From a virus (taxonomy: Duplodnaviria; Caudoviricetes), in the IMG/VR virus record IMGVR_UViG_3300025151_000039, positions 1 to 59,528 of that record: a stretch of 59,528 nt of DNA. The stretch is one strand, 5' to 3'. The position numbers were made by a program, and so were the translations under genes. Under the pieces are notes generated by a model. It had not been told where the DNA came from, did not search any database, and saw only the letters and a list, made by a program, of their open reading frames with translations. Numbering within the stretch: the stretch's first letter is position 1; each line of letters begins with the position of its first letter. This document shows, in pieces, positions 3,057-59,528 of the stretch.

Positions 3057-4624
3057 TCCTTTGCTTTACGCTTCTTTTTAGTAAATCCCTCTTTATTCTC
3101 TTCAAGCCCTTTTGGTGGATATGCAAATTTGCACGCATACGCAAGTCCATCAATTGCATCATCATGAGCCATTCTAGGTCCAAATGTTATAATCTCTCTT
3201 TGAAGTGAATAGTGAGTTTTTTTAATATGGATTTGACCCACAGAGAACCTTTGAGCAAGTATCTCTTGAATCCTATCCCTTTTTGACATTCTTGTTCCCG
3301 GTTTCTCTTCTCTCCACCTAAGGCTAAAATCGTTCCGTCTAAGGCTCTCTGCTCTGATTGCTTGGAAGAGAGGTTTTGACATTGTCGTGTCTTCAACCGT
3401 AAATACCCGTGGGTGATAAATCTTGTTGGTTTCATACATGTAATCCACAATTCCCTTCTTGTCAGAGCCAGGTATCCCCAGTACAGGCAAAGAACGCTTA
3501 CGTATATAGTCAAGCACATAAATGTTATTGTCCATATCCACTGCGACAGTAATAATAACGCTGAAATCACTATCTCTCCTTACCGAATCGGTTGCTGGAT
3601 CAACGCCAGAAAAAGTAAGCACTGGCTTAGCAGTACCATTAACAACAACATAGCTAATTCCCGACTCGTTATCATGTCGAAAATCACCTTCCCAGTATTT
3701 GATATGCTCTCTTGTAAAGATTGCGTCATCTTCACTTTGTACCTCCATAAGGTATTCTTGATAGAATTTTTGAGGTTGACCACTATCTGCATAGAACTTT
3801 TTCTTCCTTTCAATTTCTTCTTTAGGGAACCAACTAGGCCAAAGAATATTGCCTTTTTTATCAATAGCTTTTCTAAAAAATACATCCCAGCTAAAATCTT
3901 CATTCTTACTTAAGGCTTGTTCATGACCAACTATAAGATTATTAACAAAAGAGTCAAAATGTACAGGAGTACCATTGACCCTAAGACGGCCATCAGCAGG
4001 CTCCAAAGCAGGAAACACAACAGCAGTGACCAGAGTACTATTCTTATCGCGGGCCTCAGCGGTAATGGTATTATTTTCGTCTTCAAAATCATCCAAGACC
4101 ACAAGGTCGTACCTCTTGTGCAGCTTTGCTCCTCCTCGGATACCTGAGATATTTGATCTTGAGATGAGTTTCGACCCATCAGATGTCTCTATGTCCTGCT
4201 CTGTCCACTTCTTGCCCTTTATATCACCGAAGTAATACTTTATTTTTTCGTTATATTCTAGATGATGTTTAACATAGTCCATATTACCCGTTGCAAGTTT
4301 CTGTGTAGCTGATACCCAGCCATAAAAATAAGGACCTCCCTTCTCTGTAAAGCCCCACTCTTTAGCTTTTGCAGAAAATGCCAAGTCACGTACTATATCT
4401 GCTTTTGTAAATACAGTTTTACCGTGACCACGAGACATAATAATTGCTAACTGTCTTATGGATTTATCGTCTATTTTATCTGCTAATTCATAATGGAATA
4501 CAGGCGTTTCGGATCGCATAAAGTCTTCTGGCAAAAACAGCTTACCAAAAGATATTACATCATTAAATGCTTGTTTAAGGAGTAATTCTTCCTTAGAAAC
4601 GTTGTGAAAGTTTACATTTGCCAT
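3041..4624 (-). CDS. terL: Terminase large subunit
   Basis: Walker A SRGHGKT, Walker B VVLDDFE, coupling motif VNGTP, FYQEY, and nuclease motifs GVDPA and HDDAIDGLAY. Confidence 0.95.
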   Translation of the reverse strand: MANVNFHNVSKEELLLKQAFNDVISFGKLFLPEDFMRSETPVFHYELADKIDDKSIRQLAIIMSRGHGKTVFTKADIVRDLAFSAKAKEWGFTEKGGPYFYGWVSATQKLATGNMDYVKHHLEYNEKIKYYFGDIKGKKWTEQDIETSDGSKLISRSNISGIRGGAKLHKRYDLVVLDDFEDENNTITAEARDKNSTLVTAVVFPALEPADGRLRVNGTPVHFDSFVNNLIVGHEQALSKNEDFSWDVFFRKAIDKKGNILWPSWFPKEEIERKKKFYADSGQPQKFYQEYLMEVQSEDDAIFTREHIKYWEGDFRHDNESGISYVVVNGTAKPVLTFSGVDPATDSVRRDSDFSVIITVAVDMDNNIYVLDYIRKRSLPVLGIPGSDKKGIVDYMYETNKIYHPRVFTVEDTTMSKPLFQAIRAESLRRNDFSLRWREEKPGTRMSKRDRIQEILAQRFSVGQIHIKKTHYSLQREIITFGPRMAHDDAIDGLAYACKFAYPPKGLEENKEGFTKKKRKAKDWVIA

Positions 4625-4649
4625 ATATTTTAGCTAAAAACAGAAGCTT

Positions 4650-4679
4650 AACTTACAATTTTAAGCTATTTTATGGCAA
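4650..4679 (-). promoter_or_regulatory. Putative promoter TTGCCA-N18-TAAGTT upstream of terL
   Basis: Matches the repeated motif at 744-773 and 6085-6114. Confidence 0.6.
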
Positions 4680-4689
4680 TAAAAGAATT

Positions 4690-5103
4690 TTATCTTTTTA
4701 TATAGAGATCTTCCGGGCTAATCTTTGGAAGAGTTTTTTGATGATAAAGCATTGCTTCTTTATTTTGCTTTAAATAGTTTGGATTATTAGGAAAATGTGT
4801 TGCTCTATAATTTTCAACAGTTTTTTCCATATTTACAGCAGAATCATCATTTCTTTTCATATTATATAATTTTAAGAATAAATCGTGAGCAATCTTAGTA
4901 TGCTTACCATACTGCCCATCAGCGCTTATAACGTTAATATGAGCACCACCATGTTTATTTTGCTCAGTAGCAAACTCTCCTAATAACTCTTGCAGTTTTA
5001 AAACACTTTCAGGGTCGTCAGTATTTAAAGTCCTTGACGCTGATGCTACATCACTCATCAATCTAATTTTGTCTCTAGTCATCATCCATCTACCTTCACT
5101 CAT
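4690..5103 (-). CDS. Protein with putative peptidoglycan-binding (PG_binding_1-like) domain
   Basis: SVLKLQELL...ADGQYGKHTKIA resembles the V..LQ..L...DG.fG..T..A consensus. Confidence 0.5.
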   Translation of the reverse strand: MSEGRWMMTRDKIRLMSDVASASRTLNTDDPESVLKLQELLGEFATEQNKHGGAHINVISADGQYGKHTKIAHDLFLKLYNMKRNDDSAVNMEKTVENYRATHFPNNPNYLKQNKEAMLYHQKTLPKISPEDLYIKR

Positions 5104-5831
5104 TCTTCTAACTCCATAATTTTTTGTACAGCGTCTATACTTTCAGGTTTAAAGCCTTGGAAACCCACCATGGCTACACCAGATTGTTTAGTGCCTTTGT
5201 CTTCAATTTCTAATATATCTACTAGTTTTAAGAAGGCTTTTAAGCGCTCGCCGTCTTGACGTGCTGTTAAAGCTATGTCTCGTATACCTCTTAATACAAA
5301 GTCTTCATTGATACCAAGTTCTTTAAGTACTGGTTTTATCTCTTCTTTCACAGATTTCTTAATCCTTTCTGTCTTAAGTAAAAGCATTGCTTTCTTCTCT
5401 GCATATTTAGGATTATCAGTCTTATATGCATTCATGTAAGCCTTCACTGGATCTACTCCTTGAGCTATATATAAAGAAAATAACTCTTCTCTGCCATTAG
5501 TCTTTTCTCTATCAAATAACTGTTTTGAAGAAGTCTTAGCACCTCCAAAGCTATAAATATTGTGTCGCTTCTCTGTATCCATCTTGTTGGAATCTACCAC
5601 CATAAATGTTCCTGTACAGGTACCTACATATTCTCTTGCATGCCTCTTATGTTTCCTATGCGGTTTCATTTTGTTGCGACGTAAAATCTGTATATAACAG
5701 CCATCATCTGCTATGACCCAGTCTCCTATCTGACCTTCTCTCCAGTTAGCTTTGTAAATAAAGTTATCCGGTAGTTCGTCAGAGCTATCATATACTATGT
5801 GTTCTGTACCCTTGATACTGTATGTTCTCAT
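5100..5831 (-). CDS. terS: Terminase small subunit (with N-terminal extension)
   Basis: Upstream of terL. FSLYIAQGVDPVKAYMNAY...AEKKAMLLLKTERIK is HTH-like, and RLKAFLKLVDIL resembles the TerS oligomerisation helix. Confidence 0.7.
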   Translation of the reverse strand: MRTYSIKGTEHIVYDSSDELPDNFIYKANWREGQIGDWVIADDGCYIQILRRNKMKPHRKHKRHAREYVGTCTGTFMVVDSNKMDTEKRHNIYSFGGAKTSSKQLFDREKTNGREELFSLYIAQGVDPVKAYMNAYKTDNPKYAEKKAMLLLKTERIKKSVKEEIKPVLKELGINEDFVLRGIRDIALTARQDGERLKAFLKLVDILEIEDKGTKQSGVAMVGFQGFKPESIDAVQKIMELEE

Positions 5832-5834
5832 TAA

Positions 5835-6080
5835 TTATGCCTTCCGATTAAACGTAAAAAGCCCATTAGGGTGTCTTCGACGAATTTCACTCTTTTTTGC
5901 TGGAAAGCTTTAGATAATATTAAAAGCGATTCTCTATTTTTTATAGGCTTACGATCCTAGACTTTACTACGATTCAGAGAAGTTTGGTCAGGTAGATTAC
6001 CCCTCTCTGACGCCCTGCGAGCCCTTGGTATTGGCTGGTCAACTATTAACTGACAAGGCTGTTGTGGAGATTTCCAACGC
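5835..6080 (-). ncRNA. Structured ~250-nt 5' leader (or sRNA) upstream of terS
   Basis: No ORF. Stems on the minus strand: TCAGAGAGG/CTTCTCTGA, and CCTTG/CAAGG enclosing the hairpin GTCAGTTAATAGTTGAC. It begins just after the predicted promoter at 6085-6114. Confidence 0.45.
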
Positions 6081-6084
6081 GGAT

Positions 6085-6114
6085 AACTTACATAAATATA
6101 TATTCCAAAAGCAA
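6085..6114 (-). promoter_or_regulatory. Putative promoter TTGCTT-N18-TAAGTT driving the packaging module
   Basis: Third copy of TTGCnn-N18-TAAGTT, located at the strand-switch region. Confidence 0.6.
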
Positions 6115-6164
6115 GGTTTCAAAAATTGCCGGATTTTAATACGTGGTCTTATTTCATTTGTATA

Positions 6165-6179
6165 CCCCCTATAAGGGGG
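6165..6179. promoter_or_regulatory. GC hairpin CCCCCT-ATA-AGGGGG followed by a T-rich tract at the divergent strand switch
   Basis: Perfect 6-bp inverted repeat with a 3-nt loop; T-rich run at about 6192-6230. Function is inferred only. Confidence 0.35.
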
Positions 6180-6256
6180 ATTTCACTAACGTTTTTTCGT
6201 TATTTTTGATTTTGTTTTTTTAGGTTTTTTAGTCTAATTAAATAGGAGATAAATAG

Positions 6257-6565
6257 ATGAGCAAGTTTTACGGTGAGTTGAATGACAATAAAGCTGTGAA
6301 TGTAGATAATATTACGATTAGTCCTGCGCAAGCAAGACATAATATTAATGTAATGCTATTAAGATCACAGAAAGAATTGTCTGTTCAAGATCATATAAGA
6401 TTTACTAATGCTATCAAAGTTGAGCAAGATCCTCAAGATATGAAAGCAATGGAAGCATCATACGCAGCTGATGAGCGTAGAAAAATTGTTAAAGATATGA
6501 TTGCAAAAGGTAAATCTGAAAAAGAGATCAAAAGAGCTCTTAGAATTTATGATAATTGTGTTTAA
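6257..6565 (+). CDS. Hypothetical protein (first gene of the early arm)
   Basis: 102-aa ORF with AGGAG SD. Confidence 0.75.
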   Translation: MSKFYGELNDNKAVNVDNITISPAQARHNINVMLLRSQKELSVQDHIRFTNAIKVEQDPQDMKAMEASYAADERRKIVKDMIAKGKSEKEIKRALRIYDNCV

Positions 6566-6768
6566 AAAGTAAGTCATGACCCTGTAGTGATTAAAAGAGA
6601 GAGTAATCGAAGCTCTCTCTTCACTACTTGTATAGTAGTTTAGTTGATTCGATACTACTTGCACCATAACATGCTAGCTCGTACTTCTTCTCTCTAATGT
6701 ATCTATTATGTATATATGCTCTACATTCTCTAATATATATCTAATAAACACTACAATAAACTAGTGTA

Positions 6769-6829
6769 ACTCGTCACGGCGAGTATAAATAGCCACTTAG
6801 GCCGTGAGCGTTGATAATATCAGGTGTGG
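6769..6829 (+). ncRNA. Pistol self-cleaving ribozyme (predicted cleavage G6824|U6825)
   Basis: P1 ACTCG/CGAGT with loop TCACGG pairing to CCGTGA (pseudoknot), linker ATAAATAG, P2 CCAC/GTGG, TTAGG, GCG, P3 TTGAT/ATCAG, then a GT cleavage dinucleotide. This matches the published pistol consensus element by element. Confidence 0.93.
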
Positions 6830-7327
6830 AGATGCAATTGAACTATTTACTAAGTTAAGAGCGGACATGTCGCCGGGCATGCTTAGCAAAGTAATTAGAT
6901 GTAGATTGTATCAACATTAAATCAAGCTTTCATACCATACTAATATTACCTGTATGGACTCAATTTGAAAGAGGAGGATGTGCTGCCTTGAGAAAGCAGT
7001 GTAGTTAATCATAGCGTAGTGAACTATGTATCATGGTATTCATTAAAAGTATCGTAGCGATAACAAGCTCATACAGAATCGGAATACCACAACTGTTACG
7101 TTGTAAATATGATGTGGACGCGAGCCGAAAGTGCTCCACAGTGAACTCCCTGTTCTAGGGTTCATCGTTAGTGATGATTAAGGCGTGAGAATCGTGCGTC
7201 TAGAACAGTTTTATCAATAACTTGAGTTGTAACCCACAAGGCAGTTAATAGCTGACAGGGCAGTAGCAATAGCTGAGTCGCAATCAGTGAGCGTTTGGAC
7301 TGTCAAAGGGGCTCTACAATTTAAGTT
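6825..7327 (+). ncRNA. Large structured non-coding RNA 1 (~500 nt), family unassigned
   Basis: No ORF. Stems: GATGCAATT/GATTGTATC, CTTTCA/TGAAAG, CCATAC/GTATGG, TGGTATTC(7034)/GAATACCA(7082), CTGTTCTAG(7150)/CTAGAACAG(7200), AACTTGAGTTGTA(7219)/TACAATTTAAGTT(7315), TGACAG/CTGTCA. Confidence 0.65.
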
Positions 7328-7697: not shown

Positions 7698-7771
7698 AGC
7701 GGATGGGTGAAACGGAAAATCATACAAGCCTCATAAGCTTGTGATAGCAGGTTCGACTCCTGTGTCCGCTA
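7698..7771 (+). tRNA. tRNA with CAU anticodon (elongator Met or Ile2)
   Basis: Acceptor AGCGGAT/GTCCGCT+A, D stem GTGA/TCAT, anticodon stem CAAGC/GCTTG with loop CT-CAT-AA, T arm GCAGG-TTCGACT-CCTGT. No encoded CCA; G at position 8. Confidence 0.88.
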
Positions 7772-7798
7772 CTATTTTTAAAATAAAATGGAGGTATA

Positions 7799-12782: not shown

Positions 12783-13718
12783 ATGGAAAATAATTTCATA
12801 ATATCTCAAAATGATTGGGATACAATTATCGCTTATGCTCAAATGAGCTATGATAAGTGGAAAACTGAGATCGGCGGTATGTGTGTTGCCATTCTCGACA
12901 AAGAAACCAAAACAATGGTTATAAAAGACCCTGTAATAGGCAAGCAGGAAGTGTCTGGTACGCTTTGCACCTTGGATAAAGGATGGCTTGCTGATTATTA
13001 CATGGAAATGGCCATGAAGCATGGTACTGATGTTAGGTTTGTTTGGTGGCATAGTCATCATATGATGGGTGTGCAATGGTCAGGTACTGACACCTCTACA
13101 ATGAAAGAAGGTTCTAGCGGAGATTACTCTATGAGCTTAGTAGTCAATCTAAAGGGTGAACATACTTTCAGAGTTAGTTGGTGGAAACCAATGGCAGGTC
13201 ATATTGATACTAAAGTTAAAATAGCCGGTCCTGAATTTAGTGTAACTAAAGAGATGGAAGACAACTTTAACAATTTAGTGACAAAGGAAACTCGTGCTAT
13301 AGTTAAGACAACTACTTATGGTAACCGGTATAATGGTTATCATGATTGGAGAACTAAGTACAAACAACCTGGAAATTATGGACCTGGTTATGTAGATGCT
13401 GAACTCATGGATAAAACAGAATCTCTTCAAGAGAAATACTGTAACACCATGGAGTCCTTAATGGAAGAAGTATTTACTGATCAATTAAAATGGCCTCAGT
13501 TTATGAAGAGATGGGATAAAATTATAGAAGATGCTGGCGCACATGATATAATTATAGAACCATTTGAAAAGGATGATTATTCAGATATTTTATTAAAGGG
13601 ATTAATTCCAGATGCAACAGACTACTTTGAAAGCCCAGAACCCGGACTCTCTCTTCACAGAGACAGAGGAATCGGTGGATATGGGAATCCGTTACAGAAA
13701 AATCTGTGGGACGTTTGA
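12783..13718 (+). CDS. JAB/JAMM (MPN+) metallo-isopeptidase
   Basis: E29 ... H90-S-H92-x7-S100-xx-D103 (WWHSHHMMGVQWSGTD) is a complete JAMM motif. Confidence 0.92.
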   Translation: MENNFIISQNDWDTIIAYAQMSYDKWKTEIGGMCVAILDKETKTMVIKDPVIGKQEVSGTLCTLDKGWLADYYMEMAMKHGTDVRFVWWHSHHMMGVQWSGTDTSTMKEGSSGDYSMSLVVNLKGEHTFRVSWWKPMAGHIDTKVKIAGPEFSVTKEMEDNFNNLVTKETRAIVKTTTYGNRYNGYHDWRTKYKQPGNYGPGYVDAELMDKTESLQEKYCNTMESLMEEVFTDQLKWPQFMKRWDKIIEDAGAHDIIIEPFEKDDYSDILLKGLIPDATDYFESPEPGLSLHRDRGIGGYGNPLQKNLWDV

Positions 13719-14343
13719 TAAACATTTCTTTAGCATATTTGGTTGCGGCGCTATAGGTAGTGCTGCAGCCTTATGCTTGGTTAAACATAATGCTAAGAAT
13801 ATAGCTATTTATGATAATGATACAGTTAGTCCTGAAAATATAGGTATTAGTATGTATGAAGATCGAAATATAGGTGAAACTAAAGTCGATGCTTTGAAAT
13901 TAATACTTGAATCAGGTGGAACTAATAGAGATTTGCAGGTAGAAACTCATAAAGAGTGGCTAGACTATAACTCTTCGTTTAAAAGTCATAAAGGTAGCTT
14001 AAATATTGGCATTTTATGTTTTGATAACATGTTTTCTCGAAAAGAGATAGCAGGTTTGTGTTTTAGAGATAATTTTGATTATATAATAGATGCACGTATG
14101 GGTCGTGAACAGATTCAGTTGTATACTGTTAAAGATATTCAAACTTATGAGAGTTATTGGTATCCAGACTCTCAGGCAAGCGAAGATACTTGCGAAGAAA
14201 AAGGGACGCCAGATGTATCAATGATTTCAGGGTCATTAATAACATCTCAAATTAGAAAGATTATTAACAAGTCTTTCTACCCTGAAGAAATTTGTTTCCA
14301 CATTCCTAGTATGGCACTAGAATGTACAACCATGGTAAAATAA
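13681..14343 (+). CDS. ThiF/MoeB/E1-family ubiquitin-like activating enzyme
   Basis: IFGCGAIGS nucleotide-binding loop, YDNDTVSPENIG, GETKVDAL, CFDNMFSR, IDARMG and candidate catalytic Cys in EDTCEEK. Start placed at ATG 13681 (GGTGG upstream) rather than the track's 13612. Confidence 0.92.
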   Translation: MGIRYRKICGTFDKHFFSIFGCGAIGSAAALCLVKHNAKNIAIYDNDTVSPENIGISMYEDRNIGETKVDALKLILESGGTNRDLQVETHKEWLDYNSSFKSHKGSLNIGILCFDNMFSRKEIAGLCFRDNFDYIIDARMGREQIQLYTVKDIQTYESYWYPDSQASEDTCEEKGTPDVSMISGSLITSQIRKIINKSFYPEEICFHIPSMALECTTMVK

Positions 14344-24623: not shown

Positions 24624-27600
24624 TTATTTTGTACAAGATTTAGATATTTTTCTATAAAACTCAGCGCCATCTCTAAGGATTTCTTTCCTTTTCTTAAAGC
24701 CTAATTTACGACTTCTACCCATAAACTCATTCTCAACAATTTGATCATTTTTAAGCTTTTTAGACCTGTTGTTAACTATAATATCACTAACACCCTCTGG
24801 ACCTCTTTGCGAAGCTCTAATGTCTTCAGCATATCTATAGGCATCCGTAGGAGATAGGTATCTTTCACCATTAATAAATTCGTTAATAGCTCTTATCTGA
24901 TGATCAGCTCCAAGGCCAGTCTTAACATCTCTATTTAATGATGCATTTTTAAGTCTATTCATTAGTCGATTTTTAGGATTATAAGAGAAGTCCATATTCA
25001 TTAAAGGAAGTCTATCATAACTATTATTCATATATGCACGACTCTGCATAGAAATAACCTTTCTTAATACATCTCCAAACATCATTGCCGTATCATGGTG
25101 TAGCTTAGTAAAATTGGTTTTATTACTAGCTTCATTCAAGTAGGTCATAACCGCTTTAGAGATCCCTGGGACTTCATAATAAGCGGCATCATAAGCATCG
25201 TAACCATCATGTATCTTATATTGAGCAACAACCTTTCTATTTATCTCAGGAGAAAGCATTCGATATACAAGCGCTTCTACTGCTAAAGGATCTGTAGGGC
25301 TAATACTTAGACCGTGTTTAGTTTGATTTCCACCTGTTAAATATTGATGAACTAAATTCCTTCTAGCAACACTTAACGCCATAGGATCTCCTTTGTGCAC
25401 ATCTGTTAAAGCGCTAAATTCATCTCTAAAAGAATCATAAAGAGGTTTAATTACAGACTCCATCTTGTTTCTATCAAAAACAACGTCTCCGCTTGTTGGC
25501 ATTGTATTAAAGGCTTGGTATTTTGATTTTAATATCCTGTTTTGCTCGGGATGAGTAATTTCAAATCTTCTTCCATTCATTATAGCGATGTCACTTTTTG
25601 CAATAGGAAGCCTATTAGTAGAGCCTTTTCTAATAACCTGCTTGATATTCTTACCCTTACTATCCCATACTACGTAAGTGTTCTTACCAGCATTATACTC
25701 ATTAGCTCCAAAACCCTTATTAAATGTAACTTTATTAATATCTTGCATTTTATCTATTTCAGACCCAAGTACCATCTGTAAGTCAGAGGCAGCTTCATTT
25801 AGTTCATTTAGGGATTTTCTAACACTTTGAAGTTCTGCCTCTCTATCGTACTTAGAATTTGATAAATAGCTTTCTTGCGATTTTAAATATCTTATTTTAT
25901 CATTAAGTTTTGATAGTTCAACAAAAGAGCCTTCTTGTTTGACATATTTATATAAATCTGAAGCTAATGTAGATGAATAATCAGTTTCATTTAATAGCTT
26001 ATTTTCAGCTTGAAGTAGTATTTTAGATATTCCAAACGTATCATTTGCATTTTTTCTGCTATAATTAGAGTTATATATCCTAGCTAATTGATCAGTAGCT
26101 ATGTCAAAAGGATTTCTTGATATTTTAAAATAATCCTGAACCTGCTTAATGCCTGAAGTAAGATCTACAGAAAGATCTGTATCGTCTGTCTTCCCAAGCT
26201 TTGTATTCCAGTTATTCTTAGGATCAAAAGAGTTCTCTAAGTCTAATCTTCCAAAGTAAATATCTTTTAACTTTAAAGCTTTAGATGATACACCATCAGA
26301 AACTTCACCTCTATTATATCTTAAATATTTTGATAACGGAGATATTACTTTAAAATTAATAAAATCTCTAACACTATCTCTATCTCTAATAGAAAGAACT
26401 TTTTGCTCGTTTTTGGTATCAACCATTTCAAATATGCCATTAAAATCTCTACCTGCTTCACTAGACCAAGATCGTCCTTTTCTAGTACCAAAGAATATGT
26501 CACTTATAAACATCTCTATCTGGTCTGCAGATGGCGGTTTTTCATAACTATCAATAAACTCTTTTGTAGCGCCAGATATTTCGCCAACAGCATCTAAATA
26601 AGCATCAACATCTTTCATTCTTAATGTATACTCTTGAGTACCCATCTTAACTCTTCCTAGCTCACCATTCATCCCAATTGCATTTTGGAGATATGTAAAT
26701 ATATTATGAAGCTTAACAAATCTTCCTCTAGTAACCAGCGACTGCTGTTGAACACTTCCCCAGTTCCTTATATCAGCACTGTTCTGAATGTTTGTATCAA
26801 ACCTTTCTAGTAATAAATTTAGATTAGATTGACGAGCTCCATAACCACTTCTAGCCGCTGCCTCAAAAAGCAGGCGAGAAGGCATTGCTCCGTAAGCGCT
26901 TGATTTGTCAAAGTCAAAATCTGCATCTTGTGGAGATATTGCATCTATTATATTCTGACGCCCAATATTACCTACATCAGTATGCTCCTCGACATAATTA
27001 ACCGCTTGATCTTTTAATTCTCTTATAAGTTTTTTGTGAGCATCGCTACCCTCTATATATATGACCTTATCATCACCTCTCCTTTTACCATCTTTGTTGA
27101 TAAACATATCTCGCAATATATAAGAGCCATCTTTTCTGCGTTTAATCTTTTTAGCGAATCTTAATTTACCACCTCTAGCTATTGCCCCTTGCTGCATTGA
27201 CTCTAGCTGTCTTTGAGCTTCTATTGGAATATAACGGTTATTCAGGCCTGGAGACACAATCCAAATATCCAGAGGCTCGCCATCTGCTGATTTTATAGTA
27301 GGATGCTCTCTCATATCTACATGAACATCATATATTTTTTTACCAGAGCTATCACGATACACAGAACCTTTTGTTCTTCCTTTTGGATCAAGAGGGAGTA
27401 CATCTCCTTGAACACCTGCTCCTTTTGTTTTAGAAGGAGGTACTACTTTGTTAATAACAATATCATTTATCTCATTACGAGGCTGTCTATTATTAGCCAT
27501 TCCTATGTTAATCTTGTTTGTAAAACCAAGGTTGTCAATTAAGTTTTGAACTTGATAGTTGGTCAAAGCAACTTCTTCTCCATGCTCTGAAGCTTTGCGA

Positions 27601-30600
27601 ATATCATCTATTTCTTTGGAAATTAAATCGTCTAAAGCTTTATACTCGTCAAGAATATCTTTTCTTACTTTTGCATTATAATCTTTACTGTCTTTGTTCC
27701 CTAATTTTTCCAGATCTTTAGGCTTAGGGTCTCCTTTTTTAGAAGAAGCTAGAGGGTCTCTTAGCGAGCCATTCTCCATTAACTCATATCCGTCTACCAT
27801 TATAGTAAACTTTTTACCCTCTCTACCTTGTCCTAACTCAGGAATAACAATCATATCAGATGAGATTTCAGTATCTTCAAACATCCCTTTAAATTTCTTT
27901 CCAGAAAATATAAAGAATCCACCTGACCCAGGATCAGAACCGTCGTGAATACCAAACCTTGAAAAGTCCATAGACATATGTCTAGAAGAAGGAGAATATG
28001 TACCAAAAAATCTTTGTGAATATTTTTCACTAGTCATTCCATTGATACTTTTATTAGACTCAACCAATCTAATAGGAAGTGATTGCTCTGAAATTTTCCC
28101 ATGTAAATCAGGAGCCATTGGTGCATAATCTGATGAAAATGCTTCACCTGATGCAATCTTGCTTTGACTAAAGAAGTGAGTAAACAGCTTATCTGCAGAC
28201 ATATCACCCATCCAAGAATCCAATATTAAGCCACTAGTTTCCATCACAGCTTCAAGTGGAGAAGAGTTTAAATAATTATCACCTTCTATTCGTTTTAAAT
28301 CTAAAAGTTTTTGAGTTATTCCTGTAAGATTTTCAGGATTAGTATTCATCTGTCTAAGTACAGTTCCGAAAGTATGTAAGGTTTTATCAAGACCTATATG
28401 ATCTCTAACGCCTAAATCGTGAGGAAGATGAACGCCAATATTAGCTCCAAAATTAGCATTATGCTCTCTACTTAAATTGCCTATTGTAGTAGCGTTATAA
28501 GGAACCTCTATTATCATATCTGAGTTAGTAGAGCTATTAATATAATCCCCTATATTTTCTACCATAGTGTTTTTTACATTACCCGGAGTATCAATCATTT
28601 TGGCAAATCCACCGTCTGTTTCACCTGCTTTTCTATGTCTATTGACTTTTGCCCCGGTATTAAATGCTAGAGCATCTGCACCCGCTTCTTTTAACATTAA
28701 GTCTATAATTGGATCGTAGAAAAAAGCTGTTTTATTATAGAACATACTAACAGCACCATCTTGCATTACTTCAGAATATCCAACTTTTGGTTTTATCGCG
28801 CCAATCTTAACACTGCTTATGTTGCCATCACCGTCTAAGTTAAACCACTCTCTTCGTGCACCTATAGTAGATAGGAATAATAAATAATCTTCCTTTGTTA
28901 AATAAGTGGGAGCATCTGTAGCACTTTTAGCAACTTTAGCGTGTCTGTCTTTAACTTGCTTTATTTGCTCTGCTGTTAGATTGTGATCCGCAGCTCTGTC
29001 ATTTAAGAATTTATCTAAAATTCTATTACTATCAAATACAGATCCATCAGACTCATCATTAATAACTAAATACTTTTGCTTTTTCTTTACACCTGCAGCA
29101 TCACCGATTCTATCAAGCTGTGTTGTAATTTCTTTTATCCAAGGATCTGTATTAGTATCAACTTTATTATATACATGCCGTAAAAGACCGTAATAATTAT
29201 CCTCTAATACCTTTCCATTCAAAGAGCCTATTAATTTTCTTCTTTTAACTAGGTTGGCATCTGCTTTTTGAGCTTCTGCTTTTGTATATAAAGGCATTGT
29301 AACTGACTGATATATCATTTGTATTGCATCAGCTAGGTCTGTATTAGACATGTCTTTACTTGTAAACCTAGGGTCAATGTCTTGGCCTAATAAATCCTTT
29401 AATTCTTTTATCTTACCACCTTCAGACAGAGACTCTCTGACGTAATTAACAGCTTTTTCAGTTGGAACTAATAAAGTTACAGACTCATTTAAATAAACTC
29501 TAGTCATCGCTTCTTTTTCTACAACATTCTCAGCTATAGATTTTAGCTCAGCATCAGAAGTACCTTCCAGCATAGCTTGAACCCTGGTTCTTCTAGAGTC
29601 TTTTTGAAGCTCTCCAGACTGCAGCCTAGCATCCATATCTATAGATTCTTGATTACTAGGTAGTATGTCATCTTTCCAAGTTTGAGTGCCATCTTTCAAG
29701 GTTACAGGAGATTTGATTACTTTATCCATTAAATACCAGTCAGATGACCCTATGAGATCAAACATCTTCATAATACCGTGGCCAGCATCAATAACCCTAT
29801 CCTTACTAAACTCTAGATGAGTGCCATGATATGCAAGTTTTTTAACTTCTCTTTTTGTAGATGCATGCATTATCTGTAATACATCTGTTACCAAGTCAGA
29901 AGTAAGAGGTTTTGCATCAGGCATAACTGCGGGACCCATTTCAGGAGAGTATCCTGTAGTAGCTCGCTCTATTAAAATGTCTGCAGTATCGTAGAGAATG
30001 CCTAAAGCACCGGCCTCATCTCCTTGCTTCATATAGCTTTCATAAATATCAGAAGTATTTTTTATAATCGTCTGAACATCTGAAGTAGGCAGGTTGTAGT
30101 TATTAGCAAATTTATCTATCGTTGTTGTAACATCCATTTCATGATGCTTATCTTTCAACTCAGGACGAACTTTGTCTAGCTCTTTCTTAATATTTTCTCT
30201 TAGAAGATGGTAGTTTGTTTCGTTTCCTGCTAAATTATTTTGAATATCTGTTAAGAAATGAGTAGTCAATGCATTATTTTTCCAAGCCTTAGCAAGGGCT
30301 GCATCAAAAGTATCAACACCTTCTTTCGTAGCTTTTTGTATAAACTTATTTATCTGATCAACAAAATCGCTTTTAGTTATTGATGTTAGTTGAGCAATTC
30401 TTTCATAATCTCTCAATATAAATAAATCAGATATATGATTCTTAATATCATCAAGCTCTTTTAATAAAGCTCCAATTTTTTTAACCCCTTCATCCTTTAA
30501 GTTTTGATTTACAAACTCATTGTCTGCTATTAAAGATTTGTTTTCTTTTAAAGAATTTGCAATTTTTCCTCCAAGAGCAGATACATCTTTTATACCTCCC

Positions 30601-33600
30601 AAGGCATATCTTGCTTGAGATCTTCTTAAGAATGCAACCATTTCAGTTCCAACTGCGTCTTTTCCAACTGCATTTTTAATTGTTTTTAAAGTGTTTTCTC
30701 CACCAGAAAACTTAAGCATATTAGATGTCCCTGCAGCGTCTACAGCACTTTCTAGTGTTCTGTAAAACTGCATAAGCTCATTAACAACATCGACATCTTG
30801 GCCATCATTAATCAAGAATCTTTCCAACTCTTTAGATGAAGGCATTTCATATCTTCCATTTCTTTTTGTAGCAAAATAATCTCTAATTGGAGAAGCTGAG
30901 CTACCACTTGAACTGAAATCAGTTATAAGAGAAGATATACCTTGAGAAATTGAGAATCTTGCATCACTATCTAACAATCTTAGGTTATTAATAAACTCAC
31001 TTTGCATATAGTTTTTAACATCACTAAAGCCTTTATCACTAAAAGTGTCAATACCAAGGGTGCCTTCAGCGACTTTTTTAAGCTCATTTATCTTTTCTAA
31101 TGATATTTCTGACACACCTTTATCAGCATTACCTCCTGAAGCAGCATGCAGCTCTTTTACTCTAGTTAAAAAAGTATTAGCTTCTGCTATAGCTTCTGCA
31201 CTAGCATTGGAGTCGCCTATAAGTATTGATGTATTAGAGCCTACTCTGATTTCTTGAAGCTTGTCTCTTAAACGCTGGGAAGCTTCTTTATCTAAAAATG
31301 TCATTTTGTTAAGAGAAATATCTGAAAATATAGAAGCTGCGTTTATTGACTGCTCTAAAGTTCTTCCTTGAACATAAGCAGCCCTCATAGTTCTATCTGA
31401 AAGTATATACTTATCAATATAGTTATGCTCTTGGTTGCCCCATATTTCATACTGCATTGTTTCATTAGCGTTTGTAAACGCTTTTTCAATCATCGCAACT
31501 CGTTCAGGAGTTAGATCTGCAAGCTCTCTTTTGCCTCCAAGCTTAATAGTTCCATCAGCAACACCGTCTCTAACTAAAGTATTTAATACATCGGCAATGA
31601 TAACACCATCTTTAGATTGAAATTTAGCGCCATTGATATTTGTAAAATCCGGTATCGTCATCCTGCCATTTGAATCAAATTCAATAGTTTGACCTGTTAG
31701 CTGTTGATAAACATCTCGAACAAAATTCCCTGTAGCTGCACTATAAGTATCACTTGTCTTTACAATCGCCTCAGCTTCGATCTCTCTTAGAGTCATGTCT
31801 ATATCTTTAGAATCTCTGACAGCAGGTATGCTATTTAGTTCTTTAATTACCTGGCCAGCACCATCTTTAGACATTAGTTTTTGCAAATAATCTTTAGACA
31901 CAACGTGATTGTCGTAATGATTAAATACCTTTAAAGCTTTATTATACTTTCTTTGAGCATCTGCTTGCTGATCTGCAGGTAAAGACCTAACCCAGTCCAT
32001 GCCGGCAAGTTCAAAAGATTGAGAGTCTGGGCCTACATCACCTATCTCTTCCATGTGAGTATACTCTTTGCCTAAAACCTCATCTATGCCTTCATAGCTA
32101 GATGTTTTTAATAACTTAGTCTTTATAATATTTTGACCATTTGACTGCTCTCTAAAGAAGCCAGTTTTTTGTAATGGCTCTAACATTGAAAGTGATTTTT
32201 GCATTTGATCAACAGCTTCTCTGCTAGCTAAAACTCTTTGTTCGTAATCCTTTCCACCTCCTGGTCCTAGAAATCTTTTAGGCCCTTTAGTGCTATGCTC
32301 GAACATCCAAAATCCACCTTCTGTATTATGAGTACTTCTTCCACCTTTAGATAGGACCATGCCCATCATCATGTTGGTTAGTATTTCAGGAGTATCTGAG
32401 CCTAATGCATTCCATACTTTCCAGTCACCACCTGTTGCTTTATAGTAATCAGCAAAAGCAGGTATATTCATGGCGACACCACCTGCAAGCATTCTAGGTG
32501 TACTTCCCCAGACATCTCTCATGAGCTCACTACCAATATTATTTCTTAATCTTTTTCCAAACTCTTTCCTAGTATCAAACATCATTTTACGGAGCTCTTT
32601 TGTTTTAACACCTTTATCAGCAGCATAATCAAGAAGACTTTTCTTTCCTAGCGCTTTCTCAAACAATAAAGATACTTCTCCTTTAGATGCTCCAGGGACT
32701 TTAGATACTTGATCTATAAAGTGTAAAGCATTGCCCATTTCTCCTCTAGTCATATTCTTGATAGGTGTATAAGACTTTCTTACAGCGGACCAATTATTTT
32801 TAATGTCATCCCATAATCCTACTCTACCACCTTTAATTAATCTAGCCGGGCCAGTAATACCAAACATTAAAGCATGGTGTTGTATATTTCGGATTCTCTC
32901 ACCTAGATCACCTTTTAAGGCTATTCTATGCTCTTCGTTTTGAGGAAGATTTAGAAGAGAGTCATCTATTGTGCCTTTCTCTCCATATACACGCTTCATA
33001 GCTTCTTCTGTGCCCATTTTAATTAATTGACCAGCGCTATGATATGTAATACCAAGTGTCGCCTCGGCTAAAGCCGCATCAACAACTGCTTTAAATGTTT
33101 TATTTTTCATACCTAAAGGAAGCGCATCTGCTAATCTTTCAGTGCCCATTCCTATTAATTTATGATAATCTCTAGAATTGTACTTTAAAGCTTTTTGAAC
33201 AATGCCTGATGCTAGTTCTTGAGCGGCTTCTGTAGATATTTTTTCACCACCTTCTTTTAAAATAGCAGCGCTTATATCATCTGTAGCTTTAGTTATAGCT
33301 TGCATGTTATTTTTAAATACACCTCTATTGCCAACTTCAGATAGCATTTCCTGGCCAATTTTAATATATGGTTGTAATCCAGCCTCAAAAGCCTCTTTAG
33401 ACCCAGCTTCTACTCCTTCACCAACTATTTGAAATGCTTTAGGGATATTATTAGTTACTGTTGCTGTGGCATATTTATCTGCAAGCTCAGAGCCCATTCT
33501 CTTTTGCAGGCCTTTAGATATAGGACTAGCTACTTTAGACAATGTGTTTGACCCAGCTCCTAAAAGCTTACCAGCCCAGCCGAATGAAAAAGCCATTCCC

Positions 33601-33986
33601 AGTCCTTGACCAAGTATATAACCCACTCTTCCTGAAGCAGACTGCTCTTCCCATGGGCGATAAGTACCAAAAGCTATTTTTTCTCTAGCTGCTTGCCCTT
33701 TTTCAGTCAAAGCGGCAACATCTAGCGCTCCCCACGAGGCTCCAGAAGCAGTTCCCCATACTACATTACCGAGGAAGTCTTGAACCATACCTGTGTCAGA
33801 TTCAGTAACTTGCCCAGGATTTGATAGAGCTTGATATTCTTTCATAAATAAAGAATGTGCGTCTGAATTTTGACTTATAGGCTCATCCGCGTTAATATTA
33901 AAAGAATCAGGATTTTGAACACCAAATTTATTAACCTTATTTAGCTCTCTTAAAAGCTCCATTTCTTCCATTAATGTTCTAGCCAT
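24624..33986 (-). CDS. Giant virion protein with putative double-psi beta-barrel RNA polymerase (crAss/phi14:2 gp66-like)
   Basis: DAD2356FDFD2360K catalytic-type loop, upstream R2167QP, and DALAFNTGAK1780V / YNKTAF lysine-containing segments; located among internal virion genes. Confidence 0.75.
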   Translation of the reverse strand: MARTLMEEMELLRELNKVNKFGVQNPDSFNINADEPISQNSDAHSLFMKEYQALSNPGQVTESDTGMVQDFLGNVVWGTASGASWGALDVAALTEKGQAAREKIAFGTYRPWEEQSASGRVGYILGQGLGMAFSFGWAGKLLGAGSNTLSKVASPISKGLQKRMGSELADKYATATVTNNIPKAFQIVGEGVEAGSKEAFEAGLQPYIKIGQEMLSEVGNRGVFKNNMQAITKATDDISAAILKEGGEKISTEAAQELASGIVQKALKYNSRDYHKLIGMGTERLADALPLGMKNKTFKAVVDAALAEATLGITYHSAGQLIKMGTEEAMKRVYGEKGTIDDSLLNLPQNEEHRIALKGDLGERIRNIQHHALMFGITGPARLIKGGRVGLWDDIKNNWSAVRKSYTPIKNMTRGEMGNALHFIDQVSKVPGASKGEVSLLFEKALGKKSLLDYAADKGVKTKELRKMMFDTRKEFGKRLRNNIGSELMRDVWGSTPRMLAGGVAMNIPAFADYYKATGGDWKVWNALGSDTPEILTNMMMGMVLSKGGRSTHNTEGGFWMFEHSTKGPKRFLGPGGGKDYEQRVLASREAVDQMQKSLSMLEPLQKTGFFREQSNGQNIIKTKLLKTSSYEGIDEVLGKEYTHMEEIGDVGPDSQSFELAGMDWVRSLPADQQADAQRKYNKALKVFNHYDNHVVSKDYLQKLMSKDGAGQVIKELNSIPAVRDSKDIDMTLREIEAEAIVKTSDTYSAATGNFVRDVYQQLTGQTIEFDSNGRMTIPDFTNINGAKFQSKDGVIIADVLNTLVRDGVADGTIKLGGKRELADLTPERVAMIEKAFTNANETMQYEIWGNQEHNYIDKYILSDRTMRAAYVQGRTLEQSINAASIFSDISLNKMTFLDKEASQRLRDKLQEIRVGSNTSILIGDSNASAEAIAEANTFLTRVKELHAASGGNADKGVSEISLEKINELKKVAEGTLGIDTFSDKGFSDVKNYMQSEFINNLRLLDSDARFSISQGISSLITDFSSSGSSASPIRDYFATKRNGRYEMPSSKELERFLINDGQDVDVVNELMQFYRTLESAVDAAGTSNMLKFSGGENTLKTIKNAVGKDAVGTEMVAFLRRSQARYALGGIKDVSALGGKIANSLKENKSLIADNEFVNQNLKDEGVKKIGALLKELDDIKNHISDLFILRDYERIAQLTSITKSDFVDQINKFIQKATKEGVDTFDAALAKAWKNNALTTHFLTDIQNNLAGNETNYHLLRENIKKELDKVRPELKDKHHEMDVTTTIDKFANNYNLPTSDVQTIIKNTSDIYESYMKQGDEAGALGILYDTADILIERATTGYSPEMGPAVMPDAKPLTSDLVTDVLQIMHASTKREVKKLAYHGTHLEFSKDRVIDAGHGIMKMFDLIGSSDWYLMDKVIKSPVTLKDGTQTWKDDILPSNQESIDMDARLQSGELQKDSRRTRVQAMLEGTSDAELKSIAENVVEKEAMTRVYLNESVTLLVPTEKAVNYVRESLSEGGKIKELKDLLGQDIDPRFTSKDMSNTDLADAIQMIYQSVTMPLYTKAEAQKADANLVKRRKLIGSLNGKVLEDNYYGLLRHVYNKVDTNTDPWIKEITTQLDRIGDAAGVKKKQKYLVINDESDGSVFDSNRILDKFLNDRAADHNLTAEQIKQVKDRHAKVAKSATDAPTYLTKEDYLLFLSTIGARREWFNLDGDGNISSVKIGAIKPKVGYSEVMQDGAVSMFYNKTAFFYDPIIDLMLKEAGADALAFNTGAKVNRHRKAGETDGGFAKMIDTPGNVKNTMVENIGDYINSSTNSDMIIEVPYNATTIGNLSREHNANFGANIGVHLPHDLGVRDHIGLDKTLHTFGTVLRQMNTNPENLTGITQKLLDLKRIEGDNYLNSSPLEAVMETSGLILDSWMGDMSADKLFTHFFSQSKIASGEAFSSDYAPMAPDLHGKISEQSLPIRLVESNKSINGMTSEKYSQRFFGTYSPSSRHMSMDFSRFGIHDGSDPGSGGFFIFSGKKFKGMFEDTEISSDMIVIPELGQGREGKKFTIMVDGYELMENGSLRDPLASSKKGDPKPKDLEKLGNKDSKDYNAKVRKDILDEYKALDDLISKEIDDIRKASEHGEEVALTNYQVQNLIDNLGFTNKINIGMANNRQPRNEINDIVINKVVPPSKTKGAGVQGDVLPLDPKGRTKGSVYRDSSGKKIYDVHVDMREHPTIKSADGEPLDIWIVSPGLNNRYIPIEAQRQLESMQQGAIARGGKLRFAKKIKRRKDGSYILRDMFINKDGKRRGDDKVIYIEGSDAHKKLIRELKDQAVNYVEEHTDVGNIGRQNIIDAISPQDADFDFDKSSAYGAMPSRLLFEAAARSGYGARQSNLNLLLERFDTNIQNSADIRNWGSVQQQSLVTRGRFVKLHNIFTYLQNAIGMNGELGRVKMGTQEYTLRMKDVDAYLDAVGEISGATKEFIDSYEKPPSADQIEMFISDIFFGTRKGRSWSSEAGRDFNGIFEMVDTKNEQKVLSIRDRDSVRDFINFKVISPLSKYLRYNRGEVSDGVSSKALKLKDIYFGRLDLENSFDPKNNWNTKLGKTDDTDLSVDLTSGIKQVQDYFKISRNPFDIATDQLARIYNSNYSRKNANDTFGISKILLQAENKLLNETDYSSTLASDLYKYVKQEGSFVELSKLNDKIRYLKSQESYLSNSKYDREAELQSVRKSLNELNEAASDLQMVLGSEIDKMQDINKVTFNKGFGANEYNAGKNTYVVWDSKGKNIKQVIRKGSTNRLPIAKSDIAIMNGRRFEITHPEQNRILKSKYQAFNTMPTSGDVVFDRNKMESVIKPLYDSFRDEFSALTDVHKGDPMALSVARRNLVHQYLTGGNQTKHGLSISPTDPLAVEALVYRMLSPEINRKVVAQYKIHDGYDAYDAAYYEVPGISKAVMTYLNEASNKTNFTKLHHDTAMMFGDVLRKVISMQSRAYMNNSYDRLPLMNMDFSYNPKNRLMNRLKNASLNRDVKTGLGADHQIRAINEFINGERYLSPTDAYRYAEDIRASQRGPEGVSDIIVNNRSKKLKNDQIVENEFMGRSRKLGFKKRKEILRDGAEFYRKISKSCTK

Positions 33987-42716: not shown

Positions 42717-42717
42717 G

Positions 42718-42801
42718 CAGTAAGGGTAGGACTCGAACCTACACAAGCTCTCGCTTATATCCTAAACAGGGATACGTGTCTGCCAATTCCACCACCTTAC
42801 T
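42718..42801 (-). tRNA. Atypical type II (long variable arm) tRNA with GUU (Asn) anticodon
   Basis: Acceptor AGTAAGG/CCTTACT+G73, D arm GTGGAATTGGCAGACAC, anticodon stem TATCC/GGATA with loop CT-GTT-TA, variable hairpin TAAGC-GAGA-GCTTG, T arm GTAGG-TTCGAGT-CCTAC. Confidence 0.85.
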
Positions 42802-43048
42802 ATTCCTTCGCTTTGCTATCATGCTTGAACCAGAAATCTATCACCTTTCCAAATGAAGCCAAGAATGTACCAATAATAATATTAAGCAAATCTCTAAAGC
42901 TCCCTTCTAATCTCAATGTTGGATGAAATAAAAGCCATATTATCCAAATAAAACATCCAAAGATGAGAATAGAAATAGCAAATTGCATCCAATCTGGAAG
43001 ACCATCTCCTCCATGTAAGATGTCCAGTCTTGATTCTTCATCTGTCAT
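42800..43048 (-). CDS. Two-TM membrane protein (holin-like)
   Basis: Two hydrophobic helices, ...LNIIIGTFLASFGKVIDFWF. Confidence 0.55.
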   Translation of the reverse strand: MTDEESRLDILHGGDGLPDWMQFAISILIFGCFIWIIWLLFHPTLRLEGSFRDLLNIIIGTFLASFGKVIDFWFKHDSKAKE

Positions 43049-43109
43049 AGTGATTGTAAAAAATCCAATTTAATAGCTAAAAGTCCTTGCTGAAAATACA
43101 AAGTAATCA

Positions 43110-43931
43110 CTAAATAATTCCTTCAAGTTTTAACGCTCTAGCCATTCTATTAACTCCGATTCCTCCACCAAATCTTGGAAAGAAATCATAGCTTAAAAAT
43201 TTATCAAGTTCTTGCATTACTCTATTTTTACCAAATCTTCTGAAAAGTAACTCTGAATACTCTCCATCAGTTTGATTTAAAAAGTTATATCTCATTACAT
43301 CTTTATCACAACTTCTTTCAGCAGAACCAATAGTCTCTTGTCCATGAAGAATAACATCTACTTTATGAAATATGCCTTTAACTGGATTTTCTTCCATATT
43401 CCAAAAAGGATGTGTTCTCTTTGGAAAGTTTTTAAGAAACAACTTGCTGCTAATTTCTTTATTCATTCTTTCTTCATGCTCTGCTTCAAGTATATCAGTT
43501 TCATATCTATCACACAAGCCATCATAAGTGCAGTGAACTGAGTCTTTTTCAAAGCCTAAAAATTCTAACAATTCTTCTTCAAGCTTTATCATGTCTTTCA
43601 TGTTCCCTTTAGTTTCAAATTCAAACATTGGGAATATCTTTTGATGCCTTCCATCTATAGGGTTAGGCTCGTTTCTATAACTTGTTGATACGCAGAAAAA
43701 ACCATCAACATCAGGATTAGTTAAAAGTTCATGCTCTAGCCACATTTGTCCAGTTTGAGGTAAAGGATAGTCAATACCGTCAAAATTGAACTGTGCTATT
43801 GTCTTGGGATCTTCACAAGCAGCTAGTATGCTTAATCTGCTTTGTGTAGGAACTTCTATAAAACCTTTTGCGTCTTTAAAAAATCTCCTCAATTTCTCTA
43901 CAGTTTTATTGTAATCAAATGTTTCGTACAT
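43110..43931 (-). CDS. Asn/Asp-tRNA synthetase-like class IIb catalytic domain, without anticodon-binding domain
   Basis: Motif 1 LRRFF...GFIEVPT, LPQTGQMWLE, motif 2 SYRNE....GRH..IFPMFEFE, ETIGSAER, motif 3 GGGIGVNR; only 273 aa. Confidence 0.88.
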   Translation of the reverse strand: MYETFDYNKTVEKLRRFFKDAKGFIEVPTQSRLSILAACEDPKTIAQFNFDGIDYPLPQTGQMWLEHELLTNPDVDGFFCVSTSYRNEPNPIDGRHQKIFPMFEFETKGNMKDMIKLEEELLEFLGFEKDSVHCTYDGLCDRYETDILEAEHEERMNKEISSKLFLKNFPKRTHPFWNMEENPVKGIFHKVDVILHGQETIGSAERSCDKDVMRYNFLNQTDGEYSELLFRRFGKNRVMQELDKFLSYDFFPRFGGGIGVNRMARALKLEGII

Positions 43932-59367: not shown

Positions 59368-59528
59368 CTAGAACGGGTTATCGTCGTCTGCGAACGGATT
59401 ACCAAACATTGTCTGGAAATTCTGTTCTTCGCTAGTCATACCTTGACCAGCATTATTAGCGCCACCTATACTGGTGGGAATGTTTCTAACGGCTTGCATT
59501 TGATTCATCATTTCTTGTTGAGTAGACT
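59368..59528 (-). CDS. Capsid scaffolding protein, C-terminal part (continues from 718-1)
   Basis: ...QQSTQQEMMNQMQAVRNIPTSIGGANNAG...FADDDNPF* is in frame when the 9-bp overlap is merged. Confidence 0.75.
   Translation of the reverse strand, partial: STQQEMMNQMQAVRNIPTSIGGANNAGQGMTSEEQNFQTMFGNPFADDDNPF
59520..59528. repeat. Terminal direct repeat / circular overlap, copy 2
   Basis: Identical to bases 1-9. Confidence 0.85.

Follow-up and report, generated by a model that had tools for sequence, protein, structure and literature searches.

The 59,528-bp marine phage record IMGVR_UViG_3300025151_000039, analyzed here in full from position 1 to position 59,528 (hereafter the window), raises the question of why a tRNA with an asparagine anticodon on a leucine-like body should stand behind the gene for a synthetase-like enzyme that has no anticodon-binding domain. 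The tRNA occupies positions 42718..42801 and the open reading frame (ORF) of the enzyme occupies positions 43110..43931, both on the minus strand, with the enzyme upstream. The best explanation of the data presented below is that these are two real genes that travel as a cassette without mutual dependence. The reading of this cassette that we favor, in which our confidence is about even, is that the enzyme is an adenylate-forming protein derived from asparaginyl-tRNA synthetase (AsnRS) that would supply dihydroorotate, accompanied by a type II tRNA-Asn that would be charged by the host.

The anatomy of the tRNA was established by three approaches. ARAGORN reported tRNA-Asn(GTT) at 42717-42801 (minus strand), and the Rfam tRNA model aligned to 42718-42801 of the same strand with a score of 49.2 bits (E = 6.5e-9). 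Direct reading of the 84-nt molecule revealed an acceptor stem of 7 bp (AGUAAGG/CCUUACU), a D arm in which a 3-bp stem is followed by G13/A22 and the D loop is AAUUGGCAG, an anticodon stem UAUCC/GGAUA with the loop CUGUUUA, which gives the anticodon GUU with U37, a variable hairpin of five pairs (one of them U-G) closed by a GAGA loop, and a normal T arm (GUAGG-UUCGAGU-CCUAC). The discriminator base is G73, and CCA is not encoded. Thus, every element of this unusual tRNA described in the first-pass annotation (GUU, G73, U37 and the 5-bp variable hairpin) was correct.

When eight divergent homologues were aligned, pairing held in 192 of 192 cells and all 24 pairs were kept, 19 of them with compensatory changes. 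None of 500 shuffles equaled the observed value, and slid controls paired at 40-51%. Given that both pairing and compensatory change in this eight-sequence alignment exceed the shuffled and slid controls, the tRNA is not a chance match; it is a genuine member of a conserved phage tRNA family, in which U33-G34-U35-U36 and G73 were invariant across 10 of 10 aligned homologues. The family extends to the cultured cyanophages P-SSM2, P-SSM5 and P-SSM7, where a tRNA-Asn(GTT) of 85-88 nt lies within about 10 nt after a gene annotated as “tRNA ligase” whose product is a homologue of the window enzyme (53-54% identity). A pattern scan of IMG/VR in which position 37 was left free returned 80 loci among at least 120 stretches and, among the matches listed, 74 were family members and 6 were not; position 37 was U in 65 of these 74 copies, A in 8 and C in 1. 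Many family copies encode CCA after G73, and the first pair of the acceptor stem is U1-A72 in the main clade and A1-U72 in the clade of the window. A separate observation concerns the RefSeq record of P-SSM2 (NC_006883.2, locus L001), where the tRNA-Asn feature is annotated at 6798-6883, inside the coding sequence PSSM2_205. ARAGORN placed this tRNA at 4786-4873, directly after “tRNA ligase”, a position that fits the locus-tag order 198, 199, 200, and the annotated coordinates appear to be shifted.

A covariance model built from the type II tRNA(GUU) family (R1) scored phage tRNA-Leu genes at 55-72 bits and gave no match at E = 0.001 to the type I tRNA-Asn genes of the same phages, from which it follows that the body of the molecule is Leu-like. 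The window tRNA resembles tRNA-Leu in its long variable arm, its 3-bp D stem and the GG of its D loop, but tRNA-Leu carries A73 and a leucine anticodon in place of G73 and GUU. It resembles canonical bacterial tRNA-Asn in anticodon and discriminator base, and the U1-A72 pair of the main type II clade recurs in the type I tRNA-Asn of one phage locus (L087), whereas the type I body of bacterial tRNA-Asn, with a variable loop of 4-5 nt and a purine at position 37, differs from the 5-bp variable hairpin and U37 of the window copy. To our knowledge, a long variable arm has not been described in any canonical tRNA-Asn of bacteria; in bacterial systems, such arms are known to us only from Leu, Ser and Tyr (plus Sec) tRNAs. 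We take the geometry of the D and variable arms to be Leu-like rather than Ser-like.

The review PMC9976931 reports that asparagine identity can be transplanted to another tRNA by the anticodon and G73, that G73 serves as an antideterminant for both LeuRS and TyrRS, that C2-G71 is an anti-SerRS element and that U1-A72 is the GatCAB determinant. By these criteria, the GUU anticodon and G73 of the window tRNA form an Asn-like identity set. The most plausible view of the molecule is that it functions as a type II tRNA-Asn specific to phages, its Leu-like body carrying this identity set. Host enzymes probably charge it with asparagine, either through AsnRS or through a non-discriminating AspRS followed by GatCAB, and the charged tRNA would decode AAY; these two codons account for 6.45% of the 15,301 counted in the long ORFs of the window (AAT, 778; AAC, 209).

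The enzyme gene encodes 273 residues that comprise only the catalytic domain of a class IIb aminoacyl-tRNA synthetase (aaRS), with no N-terminal oligonucleotide-binding (OB)-fold domain for anticodon binding. It matched PF00152 (class II D, K and N catalytic domain) over profile positions 27-291 of 308 (E = 2.2e-16), and phrog_29758, a PHROG family without an assigned function, over positions 9-266 of 267 (E = 1.2e-94). The first-pass annotation had placed a co-oriented class IIb catalytic domain about 300 bp upstream of the tRNA, and the gap was found to be 308 nt. An AF2 model of the enzyme (predicted local distance difference test score, 91.9) was compared with known structures by VIA-align, giving Z scores of 27.4 for human AsnRS, 26.4 for archaeal AspRS, 24.2 for AS-AR, 23.4 for GenX and about 23 for LysRS; Foldseek and profile searches likewise ranked AsnRS first.

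The core fold matches that of class IIb AsnRS of the archaeal/eukaryotic type (root mean square deviation of 2.5 over 249 residues), and the likeness includes motifs 2 and 3, the amino-acid motif Q..Q..LE and the arginine of GS.ER. Class II motifs 2 and 3 are present with their arginines conserved, and the enzyme motif QTGQMWLE aligns with QSSQLYLE of AsnRS; AspRS has Lys in place of the Glu of this motif. Across 121 viral enzyme sequences, 91 of the 273 positions, including Arg-86, Glu-88, Arg-95, His-96 and Arg-262, were conserved at 97% or above. The differences from AsnRS are equally clear. The alignment of model residues 1-272 to human AsnRS covers only residues 243-532 of the latter, whose OB-fold domain has no counterpart in the enzyme; sequence identity to AsnRS is 20-23%, the asnS model NF003037 scored 27.2 bits against a cut-off of 414, and the enzyme is set apart by a pyrimidine gene context, described below. 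EpmA/GenX, a LysRS paralogue that lysylates EF-P, offers a parallel as a core-only class IIb paralogue with a non-tRNA substrate, but no family-level sequence match to it was obtained, the pocket of the enzyme is AsnRS-like and not LysRS-like, the enzyme is also found in viruses of eukaryotes, and no EF-P link was seen.

The family is large: 258 clusters or representatives at 50% identity had E values below 1e-30, and at least 8000 near-length matches were recovered. Atlas clusters of the family were mostly viral, Nucleocytoviricota included. The enzyme is a member of a large uncharacterized family of AsnRS-derived, core-only proteins in which the site for ATP and amino acid is kept and, given this site, it probably forms an acyl-adenylate. 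A literature search, with supplements outside its scope, found no paper on the enzyme-tRNA cassette or on a pyrimidine role for the enzyme; the sole mention found in the literature is as “tRNA ligase” (T4-GC 194) in a table of PMC3037559.

The association between the two genes was examined from both sides. A tRNA-first search of IMG/VR, with a pattern in which U37 was fixed, returned 80 loci among at least 119 stretches. In 66 of these 80 listed loci the enzyme was directly upstream and co-oriented, the pattern lying mostly 23-46 nt past the enzyme match; the remainder comprised 9 loci with less than 400 nt of upstream sequence, 2 that were not tRNAs and 3 real exceptions (L124, L160 and L165). 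The 2 that were not tRNAs, L132 and L139, had been among five candidates for a tRNA without the enzyme and were rejected as chance matches to the pattern. Thus, among the matches listed, 66 of 69 confirmed tRNA copies with room upstream stand directly behind the enzyme gene. The first-pass annotation had proposed co-occurrence in other genomes as a check, and these linked loci, which include P-SSM2, P-SSM5 and P-SSM7, provide it. The scan with position 37 free added 14 linked copies and 2 unlinked copies (L231 and L232).

From the side of the enzyme, the best 80 of 506 IMG/VR relatives were inspected, and a downstream tRNA scoring above 75 bits was present in 13 of the 80; where the tRNA was lacking, the next ORF mostly began within about 10-100 nt. 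When the presence of the tRNA was mapped on a tree of 121 distinct viral enzymes (FastTree only), three to four changes sufficed, and linkage was restricted to two clades, one of 66-69 rows and, separately, the window clade of 7 rows. This pattern is what inheritance of a compact cassette from a common ancestor would leave.

Each partner was also found alone. No enzyme was detected in any of the five whole records behind unlinked tRNA loci, two of which are phage genomes of ∼195 kb rated 100% complete; with the same query, all 10 positive genomes yielded the enzyme. Conversely, no type II GUU tRNA was found in an enzyme-bearing 312-kb phage (100% complete), a 436-kb record (95% complete) or two jumbo phages. 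R1 matches in the jumbo phages LR756501 and LR756508 and in the 436-kb provirus record were rejected because they are ordinary tRNA-Leu, -Ser, -Tyr and -Pro genes, and the tRNA-Asn genes of these three are type I. Most phage copies and giant-virus-bin copies of the enzyme are without the type II tRNA, which was likewise absent from all 80 cellular enzyme loci described below. Enzyme positions 89 and 228, which among the viral sequences seemed specific to tRNA-linked forms, were rejected since tRNA-less cellular homologues have the same residues, and no residue specific to the tRNA-linked enzymes was found. Given that each gene occurs alone in complete genomes, the tRNA can be used without the enzyme and the enzyme without the tRNA; here the cassette is unlike an obligate orthogonal pair such as PylS with tRNA-Pyl. 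The two genes may have stayed side by side because they descend together as one compact unit or because both are tied to the asparagine/aspartate pool; the match in their asparagine specificity hints at the asparagine pool as the connection.

Further tRNA-like elements were noted 0.5-2.7 kb from tRNA-less enzyme genes, at L059 (666-745), L047/L048 (2360-2449), L050 (1013-1150), L076 (5443-5600) and L053/L055 (318-415), in each case upstream of the enzyme except at L076, where the element is downstream. These have R1-like D and T arms, the acceptor stem AGUCCUG/CAGGACU and A73, together with an anticodon-arm region that is disrupted or much enlarged (80-158 nt), and may be relics or intron-bearing. 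In L084, the tRNA array upstream of the enzyme contains a type II tRNA (2621-2710, plus strand) that ARAGORN assigned as Ser(ACU), with an unusual A34.

The enzyme also occurs in cells. A scan of species-representative genomes gave 369 stretches, and the cellular locus tallies refer to the best 80 of these 369. The bacteria among them were Coxiellaceae-like and other Gammaproteobacteria, Chlamydiota, Dependentiae/Babeliales, Patescibacteria/Saccharibacteria, Bdellovibrio-like organisms and a Rickettsiales symbiont, and the archaea were Woesearchaeota, Nanoarchaeota and Pacearchaeota; these lineages are mostly host-dependent. The distribution is patchy, with the enzyme in 4 of 150 sampled Chlamydiota genomes, and a correlation survey of the Chlamydiota was dropped because four carriers were too few.

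Neighboring genes were tallied from ORFs called in this analysis. Among the 148 immediate neighbors at the 80 cellular loci, the commonest Pfam families were Pribosyltran (17), DHO_dh (11), FecR (7), Dus (6) and OMPdecase (5). NCBIfam models identified neighbors as PyrE (241.8 bits; cut-off, 208), quinone-dependent PyrD (467; cut-off, 457), PyrF, a PyrD-like-PyrE fusion and a PyrD-like-PyrE-PyrF fusion, and 1 of the 10 neighbor proteins tested had no NCBIfam family. A single BLAST cluster joined 27 pyr neighbors from 27 loci, the canonical PyrD cluster contributed one further locus, and the enzyme lies immediately beside pyrE, pyrD or pyrF in 28 of the 80 loci. Fusions of PyrD with the enzyme and of the enzyme with PyrF also exist but are rare. 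Among the individual loci, a metagenome-assembled genome (MAG) of Dependentiae (L285) has a 720-aa ORF (4597-6759, minus strand) composed of a divergent PyrD-like domain, PyrE and PyrF that adjoins the enzyme, and a PyrD-like-PyrE fusion at L259 is 568 aa long. A conserved divergent upstream neighbor of 248-351 aa on the minus strand was seen in Coxiellaceae-like genomes (L265, L267, L269, L270, L273, L286 and L301); the one member tested, L269:1805-2800, had no NCBIfam family. At the viral loci ThyX was the commonest neighbor family, accounting for 11 of 150 ORFs scanned (of 212 distinct ORFs from 81 loci), and a smaller first sample of downstream neighbors had given no common family.

The state of the pathway was compared, using curated cut-offs, between 14 genomes with pyr genes next to the enzyme and 14 control genomes. 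PyrF exceeded its cut-off in 14 of 14 enzyme genomes and in 8 of 14 controls. By contrast, CarB did so in 3 enzyme genomes as against all 14 controls, PyrB in none as against all 14, and PyrC of the multimeric type in none as against 11. PyrC of the dimeric type was also over cut-off in none of the 14 enzyme genomes, a blank that carries little weight because this model passed in only 1 of the 14 controls. The enzyme thus holds the place of PyrB and PyrC in pyrD/E/F clusters of genomes that lack both, and gene context points to the same role for it, namely delivery of dihydroorotate to PyrD, although the fold and chemistry of PyrC and PyrB (amidohydrolase and transcarbamoylase) are unrelated to its class II adenylate-forming type.

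From this context we infer that the enzyme works in pyrimidine nucleotide supply. Most likely, it would make dihydroorotate in an ATP-driven reaction, so that neither aspartate carbamoyltransferase nor dihydroorotase would be needed. In phages, the dihydroorotate would feed host PyrD, PyrE and PyrF during infection and so boost pyrimidine supply; in cells, the enzyme would supply the same three proteins where the first steps of the pathway are absent. Two chemistries are compatible with the fold. The enzyme could activate the β-carboxylate of N-carbamoyl-aspartate in the manner of AsnA, with ring closure to follow, or it could form Asn-AMP in the manner of AsnRS and capture CO2 to give an N-carboxyanhydride, which would then be attacked by the side-chain amide. 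The latter extends to a bolder proposal, which we regard as a long shot: that a single protein takes Asn-AMP and CO2 through the N-carboxyanhydride to dihydroorotate, replacing carbamoyl-phosphate synthetase, PyrB and PyrC, with the type II tRNA(GUU) sustaining AAY decoding in phages while free asparagine is drained. The features of the tRNA (G73, G34-U35, no A37 capable of carrying t6A and, in the main clade, U1-A72) would fit charging by a non-discriminating AspRS with GatCAB, which would need no free asparagine. A simpler variant would be an AsnA-like, ATP-driven cyclization of scavenged N-carbamoyl-aspartate.

Several observations weigh against a pyrimidine enzyme partnered by a host-charged tRNA-Asn. 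An immediate pyr neighbor is present at only 28 of the 80 cellular loci, and none of the 10 window ORFs scanned is a pyr gene. PyrD was not found at E = 1e-10 in 3 of 10 enzyme-bearing genomes, so that the enzyme is not strictly tied to the pyrimidine pathway. One genome (G162) gave PyrC-like and PyrB-like matches below the cut-offs, and the PyrB and PyrC blanks come from MAGs without completeness estimates, although the presence of PyrF in 14 of 14 argues against gross gaps. With respect to the tRNA, U37 is unusual for a molecule that reads codons starting with A, and charging by the host would require a class IIb AsnRS or AspRS to tolerate the long variable arm. Lastly, the position of an AsnRS-like enzyme beside a tRNA of asparagine identity is a striking match that a pyrimidine role does not really explain.

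The alternative that survives best, though we consider it unlikely, is an asparagine-supply module in which the enzyme, like AS-AR or AsnA, would synthesize asparagine in an ammonia-dependent reaction and the tRNA-Asn would add decoding capacity for an Asn-rich, A+T-rich phage. AS-AR (PDB 3P8T) and AsnA are core-only class IIb paralogues of about 270-330 aa that form adenylates without tRNA, as the enzyme would on this proposal; the match to AS-AR (3rex/3p8t) extends over 242 residues at the Z score of 24.2 given above, DGRH in the motif-2 loop is common to both, and AAY codons are frequent in the window. AsnA was found in none of five enzyme-bearing genomes and a real AsnB in one of the five, which would leave room for such an activity. 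However, the weak matches to AsnA models (NF005055, 24.5 bits; NF005052, 24.3 bits) fall far below their cut-offs of 389 and 368, PF03590, the AsnA family of Pfam, gave no match to the enzyme at E = 0.1, and the pocket motif is the AsnRS-like QTGQMWLE and not THSMILHKQ of AS-AR. AS-AR accompanies AsnRS, whereas canonical AsnRS was present in 3 of 10 enzyme-bearing genomes and absent from the other 7; GatB was present in 5 of 5 such genomes tested, 3 of them without AsnRS. Given that AsnRS is absent from these seven, a synthetase for free asparagine would be of little translational use there, and the AS-AR-like reading is weakened. The neighboring genes, moreover, belong to pyrimidine and not to amino-acid metabolism, so that “only an asparagine synthetase”, as the first-pass annotation had allowed, is not what the context says.

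Distinctly doubtful, in our judgment, is the dedicated enzyme-tRNA pair that had been proposed for this locus, in which the core-only enzyme would act as a minimal synthetase, charging the type II tRNA(GUU) by way of its acceptor end and long arm instead of the anticodon, and would keep Asn-tRNA, or another aminoacyl donor, available to the phage from an insulated source. The 66 of 69 linkage is what such a pair would produce, the AsnRS-like specificity of the enzyme agrees with the identity set that PMC9976931 would assign to the tRNA, the aaRS-type Q..Q motif lost in AS-AR is kept, and in P-SSM7 and L080-L085 the enzyme gene lies within tRNA arrays. Of the proposal, the co-occurrence of the genes and the shared pointer to asparagine stand. 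An obligate pairing does not: the tRNA occurs without the enzyme in two complete phage genomes, most phage, giant-virus-bin and cellular copies of the enzyme have no such tRNA, neither a residue specific to linked enzymes nor an anticodon-binding domain is present, and the cellular copies sit in pyr operons, at times fused to PyrD or PyrF.

The remaining proposal, that SerRS or LeuRS of the host would charge the type II body and place Ser or Leu at Asn codons, is very improbable: the long variable arm, the Leu-like D arm, G73 as the tRNA-Ser discriminator and G2-C71 in the window copy would favor it, but G73 is reported to act against LeuRS and TyrRS and, with the anticodon, completes the reported Asn set, many family copies have the reported anti-SerRS element C2-G71, the arm geometry is, as we take it, not Ser-like, and GUU and G73 are under strong purifying selection in diverse phages, which is hard to reconcile with proteome-wide missense.

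Other features of the window complete the picture of the locus. The gap between enzyme and tRNA is occupied by an ORF of 82 aa (42800..43048, minus strand) with two hydrophobic helices, a putative small membrane protein that the first-pass annotation had missed. Its stop codon overlaps the first two bases of the tRNA. The ORF is kept in five of six members of the window clade (the window, L006, L008, L009 and L011, but not L012) and matched no Pfam, NCBIfam or PHROG family. The window has a G+C content of 35.3% and encodes a portal protein, a large terminase and a primase-helicase. The second tRNA that ARAGORN found in this phage is tRNA-Met(CAT) at 7698-7772 (plus strand). A ThiF-family (E1-like adenylyltransferase) ORF lies in the phage replication region at 13612-14343 (plus strand; PF00899, E = 1.1e-16), and a single ORF of 3120 aa extends over 24624-33986 (minus strand) amid large ORFs without a PHROG match.

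In summary, the cassette brings together two families that were absent from the literature searched. A widespread type II tRNA-Asn breaks the rule that, in bacterial systems, long variable arms are known only from Leu, Ser and Tyr (plus Sec) tRNAs, and its presence in cultured cyanophages makes both charging and decoding directly testable. The enzyme belongs to a very large, strongly conserved, AsnRS-derived core-only family distributed over phages, giant-virus bins and host-dependent bacteria and archaea, and its context points to an unrecognized entry into pyrimidine biosynthesis in genomes without PyrB and PyrC. If this reading is true, the enzyme would close a gap in this pathway for Coxiellaceae-like, Chlamydiota, Dependentiae, candidate phyla radiation (CPR) and DPANN genomes, and its viral copies would represent a new kind of viral auxiliary metabolic gene.

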